From positions 1 through 64,000 of the IMG/VR virus record IMGVR_UViG_3300011113_000664: a stretch of DNA of 64,000 nt; one strand, given 5' to 3'. The DNA is from a virus. The notes under the pieces are model-generated. The model was given only the letters and a program-made list of their open reading frames with translations. It made no database searches and had not been told where the DNA came from. The translations under genes and the position numbers were made by a program. How positions within the stretch are numbered: position 1 is the first letter of the stretch; each line of letters begins with the position of its first letter. Shown here piece after piece: positions 3,001-48,637 of the stretch.

Positions 3001-3703
3001 TAAGTTTATCTCTATTATCTGGTATATAATCTGGTGGTATTTCATAAAGTGACTCATAATCGTTATGGTCCTGCCTTTCTAGAAAATAATTTGAACTAAT
3101 ATAAGGATTAGTAATATTAACTTTAAAATATAAAGGCTCCCCCATAATGTTTCTAGTCCATAATTTTTTACTAGTAGTTAAATATAGATATCTACCAAGG
3201 TCAGAACCATTTCCTTTTCTTTTAGATATATCATAAATATCAAAAACATCTTGACTTAAATGTATATAAATATCTTTATATTTGCTACTTGGGAATACGG
3301 TTTTTAAATACTTACTATATTCTTGTTGTGTACCAATAAGTTCTAATTTTGAATTTTGTTTAAAAATTTGATTAATTATATTGTTTTCATATTCTTCTTT
3401 AATTAAAGATTTCTTTTTGATTTCTATATTTTCCTTAATTAAAATATTTAAATCACTTCTACCTTTAAGAACTCTATGATATGTTTCTTTGGGAATGAAT
3501 AGTTCAGTTCCTTTTTTTAATCTGATAGGTAATTCATTATCCATTTGAAATCCCCAATCGGATTCATTTAATACTTTAACATATCTATCTTCTTTATCCC
3601 TATGCCAAGCTAAAGATTGAGGGTCAGTATTACTATCAAATTTCCTTATAAAAGTATTTTCTTTTAAGTTTTTTTGTGTAAATGGTAAGTTATTTGATTT
3701 CAT
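1..3703 (-). CDS. Large multidomain virion-cargo-like polyprotein (>1230 aa, runs off the window): N-terminal cupin-like domain, three ADP-ribosyltransferase-like (ART-PolyVal-type) domains, small Cys domain, C-terminal HhH-glycosylase-like domain
   Basis: Missing from the ORF track because it has no stop in the window. Hand translation from ATG at 3703 (MKSNNLPFTQ...WHRDKEDR) stays open to base 1 (...KELVLD). Motifs: AYHGSPHSFDKFS..GTGEGAQAFGWGLYFT, IVFHRT..FEKFD..GDYGKAFYF, YVVFD, YDVWPSAYASGAVVKCR, WYNHA..AAAVVAVLSPGNKW. Confidence 0.85.
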   Translation of the reverse strand, partial: MKSNNLPFTQKNLKENTFIRKFDSNTDPQSLAWHRDKEDRYVKVLNESDWGFQMDNELPIRLKKGTELFIPKETYHRVLKGRSDLNILIKENIEIKKKSLIKEEYENNIINQIFKQNSKLELIGTQQEYSKYLKTVFPSSKYKDIYIHLSQDVFDIYDISKRKGNGSDLGRYLYLTTSKKLWTRNIMGEPLYFKVNITNPYISSNYFLERQDHNDYESLYEIPPDYIPDNRDKLINDFKLSLNNPSAEEIDNMDIGEFENYIKTRHDGIIEPTRNNKIYQMVVFDSKNYLRLGSEKDIEGFKNFVNRNKQTQLQENYTPTDVDFVFKSNLELAKIGTKEEYSQYLDTIFPTSKVKDIVFHRTKSKVPFEKFDLSFAKDFGDYGKAFYFAPLEKVENVWNANALKNPTNNILAVKLNINNPFIDPKDRDSKDFQDFIRKNKNYGVTAYVELYNDGVIDYYEHSTPLQYVVYDSNNIHILGSKQDIEGFKKFVGNSLIKEGMELQDEEVTAYHGSPHSFDKFSTQHMGTGEGAQAFGWGLYFTDLESIARDYAQKLGEIDAKVYVNKRQIDSPNHPLFYYQNFLLKANGDVNAVLTELKEIQKAEEGFPENVTTKKRKKAIAFLEKNPKIKIDIKRNLYKVSLHKGKTPEQYTWLEWDRQVSDNIFDKIANQAKLIGNIMLEMIAKDFNRRNQTGENVYKNISKILNSDKEASLFLLRAGIDGIKYPAESIARGATSDTARGFNYVVFDENAVSIEKQTQLEEMEVSKKDLIQNWMNNPKKLKEDAEDANFMEEITKGELEEAKKARTKLRKKSKGDRCTRIAKRKYDVWPSAYASGAVVKCRQGKIWKGLNEEESENSDDKYFNGMLITNDIVKGDKPIWQPLYEFLKSIFGEKYKQAADGYMFYASYIIEDFNNLEVFQYRHGITRKYFYLDSEGQPYKIDFSYSNLKKDSYVSGVKKIPYQEQFKLIYSDLIKYIESACKTNDCVVPDDSYLMKYSDYKILRDKALNKFGYNVQTIKSKKDIEDFGKELNEDEYLLDNYPKELIKKAHDAITRRKGKDYAPDVHELQAWIDKYQESLNEDEYLLEPKRPKPKTTLDLGISTDEGKGVDNIIAVYNEADDEEKDYWGKWYNHANKDVNTLSNKFNIDFRIAAAVVAVLSPGNKWLGNLYAAEKVIQKFNDPLLDIKINAYGRNIDKALKILETGDISYVKGPKVTVFFNSLMDPQSVDKELVLD

Positions 3704-3705
3704 AT

Positions 3706-4377
3706 TTATTTTTTTCTAAATTCTTTTTTTAATCTTCCCTCAACATAATTTTTAGGTATTATATCTGTTGTTTTAAAATATTTTTCTTTACCTTCTTCTA
3801 TTGAATGATACCATTTCATTCCTAACACATTTACTTTACCTAATGCACCTATTTTAACCCTACCTAACTTCCATCCATCAGGTATATCACCTAATATCAT
3901 TTTTGATTCGTTTGTTAAAATATTTGTAATCCATTTTTTATTATAATTATGATTTAATTCACCATCTTGTTTCCTATTAATTTTTTCACCATTTAAATCT
4001 CTTAAAATTTTTTTATATTTTTTAGTTTCAATTCCTTTATTTATGGTATCTAAAGATTTAGGTCTTTTCCACATTTCCATGCAAAGATTTTTAGCATATT
4101 CATATTCTCTAGATGATACTATATAATCTCTTTTTGTTTTTTGATTACACATTCCCCAAAAAGCATATTTAAGTTTTTCATTATTAGGATATAATTCACA
4201 TAATATTTTATGACAAATAAAATGTTCCTTTGCTGTTAATATTGTCAAATTATTTTTTTGATTTGTACCACCCATACATCTAGGAATAATATGATGCTTT
4301 TCTTTATAGATTGAATTATCTATAATCCTATTTTGACCTCTTTCACAAATTTTATTATATATTAGTAATAAATCCAT
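3706..4377 (-). CDS. HNH homing endonuclease
   Basis: EKHHIIPRCMGGTNQKNNLTILTAKEHFICH HNH motif, followed by NUMOD-like KWITN..GWKLGR repeats. Confidence 0.85.
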   Translation of the reverse strand: MDLLLIYNKICERGQNRIIDNSIYKEKHHIIPRCMGGTNQKNNLTILTAKEHFICHKILCELYPNNEKLKYAFWGMCNQKTKRDYIVSSREYEYAKNLCMEMWKRPKSLDTINKGIETKKYKKILRDLNGEKINRKQDGELNHNYNKKWITNILTNESKMILGDIPDGWKLGRVKIGALGKVNVLGMKWYHSIEEGKEKYFKTTDIIPKNYVEGRLKKEFRKK

Positions 4378-43999: not shown

Positions 44000-44818
44000 T
44001 TAATCAATAGAGCCATTTAGTTTTAATGCTCTAGCCATTCTTGTCATTCCTATACCACCACCAAATCTTTCAAAGAAATCATGAGAGAAGAAATCTTCCA
44101 ATTCTTTTTCTACTCTATCTTTACCGAAGAGTTCAAATAATTTTTGTGAGTATGCTCCACCTTCAATAGTATAGAACATTTCTCTCATTTTTTCAACATC
44201 ACAGCTTCTTTCGGCAGAGCCAATGGTTTCTTGACCATAAAGGATAACATCAACTTTATTAAAGATACCATTATCGTTATGTTGCATATTCCAAAATGGG
44301 TTTGTTCTTAAAGGAAAGTTTTGTAAAGATACAACAGGACCTTTTTCTTCCCACATTCTTGTTTCATGTTCGTTTTCAAGAATTTCAACTCCACCATATT
44401 CTTGACAAACATCATCATAGTTTACTTCGATTGGTTTATCAAATCCAAGATGCTCTAGTAGTTCAGCTTCAAGTTGAAGCATATCTTTCATTGTGCCTTT
44501 GCTTTCAAATTCAAACATAGGGAAGATAAGTTCATGTCTACCTTGAATTGGATTTTTTTCTTGCCTATATGAAGTTGATACGCAAAAACATCCTTCCCAA
44601 GATGGATTAGTTAATAATCTTTCTTCCAAAATCATTTGTCCTGTTTGCGGAAGAGGCCAAATTTGATTTACATATTCAAATTGGGTTATTGAGTGAGGGT
44701 TTTCACATGCTGCTAATATTGATAGGCAAGATTGTGTTGGTACTTCAATGAAGTTTTTCTTTTGAAAAAATGTTCTTAGTTTGTTTACCGATTGATGGTA
44801 TTGATATGCGTCTTTCAT
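44000..44818 (-). CDS. Stand-alone class II (Asp/Asn/Lys) aminoacyl-tRNA synthetase catalytic-domain homolog
   Basis: Motif 1 FIEVPT, motif 2 YRQE..GRH..F.MFEFE, ETIGSAER, motif 3 GGGIGMTR; no anticodon-binding domain. Confidence 0.8.
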   Translation of the reverse strand: MKDAYQYHQSVNKLRTFFQKKNFIEVPTQSCLSILAACENPHSITQFEYVNQIWPLPQTGQMILEERLLTNPSWEGCFCVSTSYRQEKNPIQGRHELIFPMFEFESKGTMKDMLQLEAELLEHLGFDKPIEVNYDDVCQEYGGVEILENEHETRMWEEKGPVVSLQNFPLRTNPFWNMQHNDNGIFNKVDVILYGQETIGSAERSCDVEKMREMFYTIEGGAYSQKLFELFGKDRVEKELEDFFSHDFFERFGGGIGMTRMARALKLNGSID

Positions 44819-44824
44819 ATTTTT

Positions 44825-45640
44825 TTAATTAAGTTTTTTAATAGAGATTAATTGGAAATTTTTTGATTTTCCTTTATTTATTATTGATTCGTAACTGACA
44901 CGATTTGGTCCTGTCAGATTGTTTTCTTTGTTAAATATATCAGTAAAAATTTTTAATTCTGTTCTTCCATTAAAAAATAAAATTTCTTTATCTTTTTTTA
45001 TTTCATAAATTTTAGAATTAGAATTATTTATACCTTGTCTTTTATTAGACATTTTTAATTTACTTTCCTCTGTATGTTTTCTAGCACCATAAATTTTATT
45101 TCTATATTTAATTGATTCACTAATTTTTCTTTTAGTTTCTTCATCTCTAGAAATTCCTTTACCATAACCTTCATGACCAATCAAAGATTCACTTAATTTC
45201 TTTCTATAGTCTTCTGATTTCATAGTTTGTTTCCATTGTTCATTTTCTAATAATGATTTGGAAATTTTACTTTTTGTTTCTTCTTTGTGTTTATAACCTG
45301 ATTGACCTTCACCACCATCGCTATGGTTTAAAAGTGTACCACCATTTTCAACTCTACCGATTAATTTAATTATATCTTTTTCCTCTTGAAAAGATTGCTC
45401 TTCTAATAAATCTTTTTTTAATATTTGATATAATGGTTTATATCCTTGATTTATAATTGAATTTAATTTTTGGTAAAATCTATTATCAAGTTTTTTGTAT
45501 AAACTAAGATGCCTTTTTGGTCTATCTGATTTACCTTTACCAACATAAATGGGTTCATATTCAAATGTTAAATTATTAAATATATAATTACCTTTTTTTC
45601 TTGGGTCTAGGTAAATATATACACAATAATTAGATAACAT
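44825..45640 (-). CDS. GIY-YIG homing endonuclease with NUMOD3 repeats
   Basis: VYIY..IYVGKG..R..H; LLNHSDGGEG; HKEETKSKIS repeats. Confidence 0.85.
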   Translation of the reverse strand: MLSNYCVYIYLDPRKKGNYIFNNLTFEYEPIYVGKGKSDRPKRHLSLYKKLDNRFYQKLNSIINQGYKPLYQILKKDLLEEQSFQEEKDIIKLIGRVENGGTLLNHSDGGEGQSGYKHKEETKSKISKSLLENEQWKQTMKSEDYRKKLSESLIGHEGYGKGISRDEETKRKISESIKYRNKIYGARKHTEESKLKMSNKRQGINNSNSKIYEIKKDKEILFFNGRTELKIFTDIFNKENNLTGPNRVSYESIINKGKSKNFQLISIKKLN

Positions 45641-47337: not shown

Positions 47338-47805
47338 TTAAAATGGCACATATTTAGTTCCAAGAACCCCTTTTTTTGCTCTTAGAATTTGACCTCTTTG
47401 TGTACCATCTACTTTATATGAAACATGAACCCAATCAGGATTTGTTTCATTACCGAACTCCCAAATGAGTTGGTCAAACTTTAAATTGTCTTTAATCCAA
47501 TTAAAGATTTCAGTATTAGTAACTTTAGAACCTGTATTATCCATATCAATATCCATAGCTTCTCCTGACGAATGTTGAGATGTTTTGGATGCTCCTGGAG
47601 TTACTTTATTTAAAGCAGCACTTCTATATCCTGATGAGATATAGATTGGTGAATTGAAATGTCTTCTGATAGGTTCAAATATTTTTTCAGCCAATACTTT
47701 CATATTTTCAATGTGTTGTTCTGTTGGTTGATTACTGACACCTTTTCTTTTTGCTGTTTCACTCCTTGTCATTTCATGGAGTGTTAAGTGTTTAGATAAA
47801 TTCAT
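47338..47805 (-). CDS. Peptidase M15A (candidate endolysin)
   Basis: SSGYRS..N...SQH..GEAMD...WVHVS; CTACTTAT upstream. Confidence 0.85.
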   Translation of the reverse strand: MNLSKHLTLHEMTRSETAKRKGVSNQPTEQHIENMKVLAEKIFEPIRRHFNSPIYISSGYRSAALNKVTPGASKTSQHSSGEAMDIDMDNTGSKVTNTEIFNWIKDNLKFDQLIWEFGNETNPDWVHVSYKVDGTQRGQILRAKKGVLGTKYVPF

Positions 47806-48183: not shown

Positions 48184-48274
48184 TTGGTAGGATGGGATTT
48201 GAACCCATATCATTGTTGAGCCTCTTTTCTAAAGTTTTTTTGAGTCAACCGCTTCGCCATTCAGCCACCTACCA
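48184..48274 (-). tRNA. tRNA-like gene with a 25 nt anticodon loop
   Basis: Acceptor TGGTAGG/CCTACCA, T arm ATGGG-TTCAAAT-CCCAT, anticodon stem GTTGA/TCAAC. Confidence 0.7.
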
Positions 48275-48276
48275 AT

Positions 48277-48386
48277 TTGCTTGTCTTTCCAAGCGGTCAT
48301 CTGTTTTCCCCTATTAGCCCAAATCATCAAAGGGGTATGAAATGGATTTTGTTTGGTGCTTTCGCTTTCCACAGAAAACCAACACA
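48277..48386 (-). ncRNA. Putative structured RNA within the tRNA cluster
   Basis: GGTTTTCTGT/ACAGATGACC stem, GC-GAAA-GC, CCCCT/AGGGG, 3' GCTTG-GAAAGA-CAAGC. Confidence 0.5.
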
Positions 48387-48387
48387 G

Positions 48388-48485
48388 TAGCCTCGCTAGG
48401 AATCGAACCTAGAAGAATTGCTTCTCTCTCCATTCCTCAGAATGGAATGAGAAGGCAATCAGTATATCCATTTACTTACAAGGCC
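48388..48485 (-). tRNA. tRNA-Arg(TCT)-like gene with a 26 nt hairpin insertion in the anticodon loop
   Basis: Acceptor GGCCTTG/CGAGGCT, D arm AGTA/TACT, ATTGC-CTTCT[26 nt]AA-GCAAT, T arm CTAGG-TTCGATT-CCTAG. Confidence 0.75.
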
Positions 48486-48490
48486 ATTAG

Positions 48491-48574
48491 TATCAGGAGA
48501 GGGAGTCGAACCCTCACGGCATTGCTGCCAATGGATTTTAAGTCCATAGTGTCTACCTATTCCACCATCCCGAC
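48491..48574 (-). tRNA. tRNA-Leu(TAA)
   Basis: ATGGA-CTTAAAA-TCCAT anticodon arm, long variable arm GGCA-GCAA-TGCC, GAGGG-TTCGACT-CCCTC; TATATTTG promoter at about 48592. Confidence 0.92.
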
Positions 48575-48637
48575 ATATTGTTTTCACAATTCAAATATAA
48601 GACTTTTTTTTGATTCTAACTATTTAAAGAAAAAAAG

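Follow-up and report, generated by a model that had tools for sequence, protein, structure and literature searches.

Hairpin inserts in the anticodon loop of phage and bacterial tRNA-Arg(UCU) genes: candidate introns for excision by RNase III and sealing by an ATP-dependent RNA ligase

A tRNA-Arg(UCU) gene interrupted by a 26-nt hairpin between U36 and A37 was identified in a phage genome, and inserts of the same class were found in freshwater jumbo phages, in Aeromonas phages Aeh1, Ah1, PX29 and AsFcp, in metagenome contigs and in termite-gut Treponema bins. Comparison of these sequences makes it probable that the insert is spliced by some route. The best reading, which we hold to be somewhat better than an even bet, is that host RNase III would excise the insert and that an ATP-dependent RNA ligase of the Rnl type would reseal the tRNA.

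The window, that is, the whole 64,000-nt stretch analysed here, covers the opening 64 kb of a linear virus record of 170 kb, with a GC content of 27.7% and an estimated completeness of 52%. The record belongs to a freshwater jumbo phage with T4-like head, terminase, portal and sheath genes, whose capsid protein is less than 45% identical to that of every cultured phage. Sequencing runs containing the tRNA region were of freshwater origin, and one contig of a source run, possibly the window's own sample, covers 48296–48574 with zero differences at a depth of 18. AGA is the main arginine codon of the phage (74% of its Arg codons). The tRNA cluster comprises the following features:

48592–48599, minus strand: TAnnTTTG box at −25 relative to tRNA-Leu, both in the window and in seven relatives
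48491–48574, minus strand: canonical tRNA-Leu(UAA) gene, first in the cluster, always preceding the Arg slot in relatives
48388–48485, minus strand: interrupted tRNA-Arg(UCU) gene, 98 nt (Rfam tRNA match, 46.3 bits)
48450–48485, minus strand: its 5' exon, tRNA positions 1–36, with anticodon U34-C35-U36 at 48452–48450
48424–48449, minus strand: 26-nt hairpin insert (candidate intron) between U36 and A37, first base C, ending in AG
48388–48423, minus strand: 3' exon, from A37 to discriminator A73, CCA not encoded
48275–48387, minus strand: conserved, structured non-coding spacer RNA, 113 nt, between the Arg gene and the third slot, conserved in L671 and L672
48184–48274, minus strand: tRNA-shaped Leu(CAA)-like gene, its anticodon loop 25 nt long and its variable arm short, in a variable cassette slot
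47338–47805, minus strand: peptidase M15 gene, conserved downstream marker of the cluster

The TAnnTTTG motif precedes 25 of 154 ORFs, as against 8.7 in shuffles, and matches what we take to be the −7 element of Bacteroidota sigma-A. It is likely to be the promoter of the tRNA cluster and, because it is kept in seven relatives and enriched before ORFs, it suggests a Bacteroidota host. Elsewhere in the window, 44000–44818 (minus strand) encodes a 272-aa class II tRNA-synthetase-like catalytic domain lacking an anticodon-binding domain, with weak matches to AsnRS/AspRS and EpmA, which lies near the tRNA cluster in relatives too. A free-standing GIY-YIG/NUMOD3 homing nuclease gene is found at 44825–45640 (minus strand), 2.7 kb from the cluster; it is missing from the corresponding place in L665, L669 and L671. 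Outside the window, the same genome (G000 67675–70380 = L169 3675–6377) encodes a 901-aa protein in which a CCA-adding enzyme, an HD domain, DUF5661 and a second nucleotidyltransferase domain are fused, possibly a tRNA repair protein.

Excision of 48424–48449 yields a 72-nt cloverleaf with the anticodon loop CU-UCU-AA, in which the invariant bases of the D and T arms are kept together with C35, U36, A37 and A20, the Arg identity base in the D loop of the 5' exon. The joined exons are identical at 60 of 72 bases (83%) to the uninterrupted phage tRNA-Arg(UCU) of L117, L122 and L125, the D loop, anticodon arm and T arm being common to both. In sisters L636 and L672 an uninterrupted Arg(UCU) gene occupies the equivalent slot; sister loci were retrieved through the neighbouring peptidase M15 gene. 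The Arg(UCU) identity, the 26-nt insert and the restored CT-TCT-AA loop, all proposed earlier from the letters of the window, were thus borne out by these intron-less homologs, which also set the insert at position 36/37. Its boundaries cannot slide, because it begins with C after U36 and finishes with G before A37. Five registers are possible, of which 36/37 alone gives back the parent sequence; this register has a 2-nt 3' stagger, where 35/36 would give blunt junctions. The Rfam tRNA alignment leaves an unmodelled stretch in the anticodon loop, and a plain ARAGORN run fails to call the gene. With introns allowed, ARAGORN returned Leu(UAG) interrupted at 34/35; this reading, and one as Arg(UCG) interrupted at 35/36, were rejected because the intron-less homologs give Arg(UCU) and 36/37.

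In the MFE fold, the anticodon arm forms five base pairs, an A.A mismatch, eight further pairs and a tetraloop, with one bulged C (−22 kcal/mol, z = −4.65; 0 of 200 shuffles equally stable). The insert's own stem spans 10 positions, including one A.A mismatch, and is closed by the tetraloop. In the predicted precursor the final two bases of the insert pair with C35 and U36, and A37 and A38 pair with U34 and U33. Both pairings named in the earlier note, and the masking of the anticodon in a long stem, were recovered in this fold. Contigs of four sequencing runs contained no joint skipping the insert, a result that speaks neither for nor against expression. Contig X20 (depth 3.7) carries two changes in the insert that would be compensatory, too weak to use.

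The same insert, identical at 26 of 26 positions, is carried by six phages (the window genome, L001, L133, L665, L669 and L670) in three different tRNA bodies, and L636 and L672 are without it. Capsid proteins of the insert-sharing phages diverge by about 20%. Such identity indicates recent spread by recombination and provides little information on selection. The exons are intact in five of the six carriers, and L664 has a decayed copy of the interrupted gene. A 15-mer scan of viral contigs returned L001 plus chance matches only, and BLAST of the tRNA cluster or of L134 against cultured phages returned no close relative of the window insert. The presence of one insert in three tRNA bodies and in phages with diverged capsids, the decayed copy, and the GIY-YIG or LAGLIDADG genes near the cluster in the window, L133, L665 and L669 would fit an insertion of selfish or homing-related nature that knocks out a dispensable phage gene, for instance as immunity to a homing nuclease that cuts tRNA-Arg, and that spreads by recombination. 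We consider this improbable, given that no single nuclease family is consistently beside the insert and that intact exons in most carriers, compensatory changes across the family and sole copies in bacteria all tell against it. Homing could explain the spread without excluding splicing.

The earlier note had seen in two such genes side by side the suggestion of a system. For the Arg gene and its Leu(CAA)-like neighbour this was not supported: in the latter, the 18-nt extra stretch shows neither a significant fold (z = −0.57) nor an RNase III-like helix, and in L672 an identical copy stands beside an uninterrupted Arg gene. Moreover, the contents of the third slot swap, being tRNA-Ile(UAU) in L133 and L670, with acceptor and T arms nearly the same as those of the Leu(CAA)-like gene, and other aberrant tRNA-like genes in L669 and L671. 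Outside the hairpin-intron class, the Leu(CAA)-like gene resembles a tRNA mimic cassette and provides no evidence for a splicing system shared with the Arg gene. Oversized tRNA-shaped genes with unrelated middles and intact acceptor and T arms are swapped in one slot among sister phages, and a similar 120-nt tRNA-shaped gene lies 3.5 kb from an Rnl1 gene in Chitinophagaceae bin G042; this set comprises window 48184–48274 (minus strand), L669 2104–2428, L671 160–520, L710 and L706 6315–6435. The spacer RNA (48275–48387) has no Rfam family at threshold, and its fold by itself is not significant (z = −1.08). In the window, L671, L672 and L669 its last element is a CTTGGAAAGACAAG hairpin, which is found again ahead of tRNA-like genes (in L671, two times).

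Pattern scans in which the insert sequence was left unspecified, and which were in that respect unbiased, revealed hairpin inserts of 23–43 nt at Arg(UCU) 36/37, most commonly of 28 nt. When 185,579 species genomes were scanned at the end, the only additions were a Chitinophagaceae bin (27 nt) and a plasmid-like contig (23 nt), so that cellular members of the class are rare. The unbiased scans gave 21 distinct inserts, 20 of which end in AG, versus 6.5% in shuffles; selection for a plain continuous helix would also produce this end. Two further inserts, from a scan that required AG, brought the set to 22 AG inserts in 12 clusters at 70% identity, a count of clusters that are not independent because they may share ancestry. 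All 22 fold with a common geometry, versus 7% of shuffles: a five-pair anticodon stem, a bulged C32, U33:A38, U34:A37, C35 and U36 paired with the terminal AG, and the insert stem. In a gapless alignment of five 28-nt inserts from three lineages, 91% of cells were paired, versus 37–54% in slid controls, and eight pairs were changed on both sides; this covariation is support and not a p-value, as relatedness is left out of account in the shuffles and these very sequences had served to derive the structure. The covarying inserts that had been suggested as a check are therefore present across the family and absent within the window's own lineage, where the insert is identical in six phages. The insert is neither unique to the window genome nor unstructured in relatives. 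The Arg(UCU) loop appears pre-adapted to such hairpins, because U33-U34 can pair with A37-A38 and a hairpin ending in AG completes the helix. A generic stagger scan of other tRNA types among the fetched loci, in which bulge–helix–bulge (BHB) helices give false positives at 34/35, returned nothing credible.

Other disruptions of Arg(UCU) genes came to light in these surveys. In L193 (597–703), L228 (1796–1902) and L194 (12575–12667), a 5' half of tRNA-Arg(UCU) is broken after U36, the same 36/37 site, and is followed by a complete other tRNA (nested or replaced). L201 (~3430–3970), L253 and L261, one of which is in a phage, contain anticodon-loop inserts of 226–521 nt ending in CT, below Rfam thresholds. 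Two Arg(UCU) inserts fall outside the class, one of 36 nt ending in TT in a Deinococcales bin (L525) and an AT-rich one of 15 nt in a phage (L165 9530–9619), beside a tRNA-Ala with a 22-nt insert.

A case for splicing comes from carriers in which the interrupted gene is the sole copy, as it is, among UCU genes found, in three of the four bacterial carrier genomes. Treponema bins G003 and G004 yielded no other Arg(UCU) gene; in both, the interrupted gene matches the single intact gene of seven sister bins in every exon base and in synteny, its locus being flanked by an ATP synthase subunit C-family gene on one side and a RelA/SpoT-domain TPR gene on the other. Bin G042 yielded 56 tRNA matches and no intact UCU gene. 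The fourth, G002, has two interrupted copies and one intact copy and is probably a mixed bin. AGA accounts for 12–32% of Arg in sampled genes of G003, G004 and G042, and to our knowledge this codon is read by the UCU anticodon only. It follows that the insert must be excised in those bacteria, which are metagenome bins from two lineages only, unless a second copy was lost from each bin. In the complete genomes of Aeh1, Ah1 and PX29 the interrupted gene is the only Arg tRNA gene among 23–24 tRNA genes. The Aeh1 tRNA list of Nolan et al. is without any Arg tRNA, and in GenBank the gene is misannotated as tRNA-Glu in Aeh1 and as tRNA-Lys in PX29. In Aeh1 and PX29 it immediately follows gene 57B (Pfam Acb1, anti-CBASS; L175 5485–5979 and 6004–6108).

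The earlier note had offered two readings of the insert, a caged tRNA activated by cleavage and ligation, or a nuclease-resistant mimic. Sole copies in bacteria and Aeromonas phages, together with the covarying inserts, make the former likelier and the latter less so. An unspliced look-alike would act as a decoy for anticodon nucleases or other tRNA-binding defence proteins, its hairpin hiding the anticodon. Phage tRNAs are dispensable, the third slot of the cluster holds other non-decoding tRNA-shaped RNAs, the genome and fragments of this phage clade yielded no ligase, and the AG end is explained by a continuous helix, which hiding of the anticodon favours too. We find a decoy doubtful, however, as it fails to explain why a single chromosomal housekeeping gene has been replaced in Treponema and Chitinophagaceae with its exons letter-perfect, and leaves the fixed 36/37 site, the length floor and the U.G/U-A pairs ten bases from the junction unaccounted for.

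In the favoured reading, excision by RNase III followed by ligation, the insert would be a minimal protein-spliced tRNA intron. From the predicted precursor we infer the following course of transcription, cutting and ligation. The insert would extend the anticodon arm of the transcript to a helix of about 20 bp with C32 bulged, in the order U33:A38, U34:A37, C35 with the last G of the insert, U36 with its second-last A, and then the insert stem. Host RNase III would cleave one strand behind U36 and the other behind the last G of the insert, the 2-nt 3' stagger being the usual one for this enzyme, and would so release the hairpin and leave exon ends with 3'-OH and 5'-phosphate. The cloverleaf would hold the tRNA halves together after cutting, until an ATP-dependent RNA ligase of Rnl1, Rnl2 or Rnl5 type, from phage or host, joined them into a normal tRNA-Arg(UCU) reading AGA. 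Because RNase III leaves 5'-phosphate and 3'-hydroxyl ends, an ATP-dependent ligase would be needed, and not RtcB.

The predicted fold places both junctions within the helix, and cutting at them would give every product a 2-nt 3' overhang. Products of RNase III carry 2-nt 3' overhangs and 5'-P/3'-OH ends (PMC1540722), and about 90% of its in vivo targets show pairing at the two positions that separate the cuts, with G-C preferred (PMC6212723). Throughout the family these two positions are always paired, as C35-G and U36-A, so that the predicted fold of the window insert displays both the stagger and the paired intervening positions of an RNase III substrate. The hairpin released from the minimal E. 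coli substrate measures 28 nt and has an 11-bp helix, and a model substrate shorter by 1 bp is cut 50-fold more slowly. No family member is under 23 nt, and the commonest length, 28 nt, is that of the minimal E. coli product. Against a helix of about 11 bp on at least one side of the cut, most family members have at least 11 and the window insert has 10 positions, mismatch included. The distal box was placed, by our own choice, at stem positions 9–10 on the basis of a 22-bp symmetric model (PMC3867540); in the numbering as we read it, the E. coli optimum is UG then UA going outward. Pair conservation in the family is highest at positions 9–10 (U.G in 13/22 and U-A in 15/22 inserts), and U.G at 9 with U-A at 10 occurs in 6 of 12 clusters, the background of U.G being 5%. 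At proximal-box position 3, G-C is rare (8% versus 27%); the E. coli rules bar G-C from positions 2 and 4 of that box.

The window insert is itself a poor fit to the E. coli rules. It departs from the E. coli RNase III boxes, as does the L134 group; the window insert has U-A/C-G instead of UG/UA in the distal box, and a C-G pair adjacent to the cut, which is a catalytic antideterminant of RNase III (PMC1540722). As judged from its predicted pairs it is among the least canonical of the family for the E. coli enzyme, which lowers confidence for this gene. The distal box is not conserved across species, and RNase III preferences are species-dependent. Only one strand might be cut because of the bulge at C32, which is two pairs away from the cut site.

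ATP-dependent RNA ligases are encoded by all bacterial and all complete phage carriers. An Rnl5-type ligase was found in 4/4 bacterial carriers (3/3 Treponema) versus 12/80 sampled family members, and an Rnl1-type ligase in 3/4, including G042, versus 2/80; Aeh1, Ah1 and PX29 have both Rnl1 and Rnl2. Intron-less Treponema sisters have a ligase in 3 of 7 cases. Since only three independent lineages are involved, and the ligases of G042 lie in RNA-repair-like neighbourhoods, with a kinase-like gene beside Rnl1, the ligase is best seen as a permissive background and not as a dedicated partner. The insert is probably an optional, near-neutral passenger that persists where a ligase is at hand. The distance between a ligase gene and rnc is no more than about 2 kb in 4/6 termite Treponema bins, versus 1/12 other strong-ligase family members (within 1.5-kb flanks), which is local synteny and not general linkage. 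As to gene order, the Rnl5-type gene adjoins the RNase III gene in termite-gut Treponema L611, L614, L615 and L610, and the CCA-adding enzyme gene in L612 and L613. In L606–L609 an Rnl1-type gene stands between a citrate synthase-like gene before it and an RNase H-like gene after it, and in L709 (1102–5662; G042 C7) an Rnl5-type gene stands between a putative TROVE/Ro60-looking gene and a six-tRNA array, in an RNA-repair-like operon.

A search for RtcB or Rnl ligases had been proposed as a check, and in the phage itself it came back empty: no Rnl1, Rnl2/Rnl5, RtcB, RNase III or EndA gene was found in the window genome, which at 52% completeness gives no proof of absence, and no Rnl1, Rnl2/Rnl5, RtcB or RNase III gene was found in fragments of 17 relatives. 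RtcB was absent from the complete Aeromonas phage carriers and from Treponema bins G002 and G003, and present in G004, making it unlikely as the sealing ligase. PF01974 (EndA) was detected in none of 12 carrier or related records and in 4 archaeal controls. The RNase III gene was present in 10/10 Treponema bins.

Another nuclease, a phage or host enzyme or Mini-III, might make the cuts, with end-healing and ligation by Rnl1 or RtcB. The sole-copy arguments require splicing and name no enzyme, the window insert and the L134 group deviate from the E. coli boxes, and a kinase-like gene by Rnl1 in G042 and RtcB in G004 are components of the expected kind. Even so, we rate such a route as unlikely. 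Carriers are found among phages of Gammaproteobacteria, in Bacteroidota and in spirochaetes, a spread for which a near-universal nuclease is to be expected; RNase III is in every Treponema bin, the geometry, length floor and distal-box pairs agree with it, and RtcB was not found in the complete phage carriers or in G002 and G003.

In the prevailing view, the tRNA introns of bacteria are ribozymes that splice themselves, and tRNA splicing by proteins belongs to archaea and eukaryotes. Introns of archaea and eukaryotes (EndA/TSEN) are likewise short, lie in the anticodon loop, pair with the anticodon and need a nuclease and a ligase. They differ in their 37/38 site and 3-nt bulges, where the hairpin family has a 36/37 site and junctions inside a helix, and in leaving cyclic phosphate and 5'-OH ends, where 3'-OH and 5'-P are predicted for the family. 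No register of the window insert yields the 4/4 central helix of a BHB, and the sole relaxed fit (37/38, 3/4) would leave C37, contradicting the intron-less parent. In a control, the BHB test was positive in 115 of 158 inserts, and 142 archaeal-type 37/38 inserts from the same scans form a separate class.

Group I introns of bacterial tRNA-Arg share the 36/37 site, a 5' exon ending in U and an insert ending in G. By contrast, they are 200–290 nt long with a catalytic core, whereas the window insert has 26 nt and no core, and no U.G pair at its 5' junction. It has no Rfam intron match, whereas true group I introns here score 63–72 bits. On the strength of the common site (L209 and L271 in bacteria) and of the U and G at the junctions, the insert might be what is left of a group I intron, with a ribozyme core from another locus splicing it in trans. 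This is very improbable: the partner of U36 is A, not the G of a P1 wobble, and neither a core within the 64-kb window (Rfam) nor P9.0/P10-like elements were found. For Aeh1, no group I core is reported (PMC1524935).

Introns in phage tRNAs were first described, as "enigmatic" non-ribozyme inserts, in Lak megaphages (Devoto et al. 2019, PMC6784885, Table S6). These resemble the hairpin inserts in being non-ribozyme, optional inserts in the anticodon loops of jumbo-phage tRNA genes, often identical between distant samples. Those we read from that source differ in being of 79–114 nt, in Tyr, Phe, Thr and Gly tRNAs, and tRNA-shaped with their own T arm; the hairpin family consists of plain 23–43-nt hairpins in Arg(UCU), which form pairs with the anticodon and have members in bacterial chromosomes as well. 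The window insert, a single hairpin and not a tRNA or mini-tRNA with a T arm and CCA-like end, was rejected as a Lak-type intron. Intervening sequences of 23S rRNA (PMC8708148) are also optional hairpins in a stable RNA gene, removed by RNase III, but they are 100–200 nt long and leave the rRNA fragmented, whereas a tRNA anticodon loop must be religated. By analogy, the window insert would work most like an RNase III-excised rRNA intervening sequence followed by religation.

T4 Pnkp/Rnl1 repairs tRNA-Lys cut by PrrC. Rnl1 and Rnl5 join 3'-OH and 5'-P RNA ends in an ATP-dependent manner, Rnl1 in a broken anticodon loop, as proposed here; the T4 Pnkp/Rnl1 and Rnl5 systems repair damage, however, and remove no intron. 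Rnl5 enzymes are nick-sealing ligases whose physiological substrates are described as uncharted (PMC5397189). No paper on RNase III-spliced tRNA introns was found in the literature searched, which left out most subscription journals.

That bacteria and phages possess a further class of intron, anticodon-loop hairpins cut by RNase III and sealed by an ATP-dependent ligase, is to us an evenly balanced proposition. If true, the route through RNase III and an RNA ligase would be a splicing chemistry new for bacteria, orphan bacterial Rnl1/Rnl5 ligases would gain a natural substrate, and one class of unexplained phage tRNA inserts would be accounted for. The cultured phage Aeh1 would be a textbook example of this class, whose hairpin-interrupted tRNA genes annotation tools overlook or miscall. 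An essential tRNA would in some bacteria depend on RNase III plus Rnl1/Rnl5, and the maturation of a phage tRNA could be coupled to the expression of a ligase.
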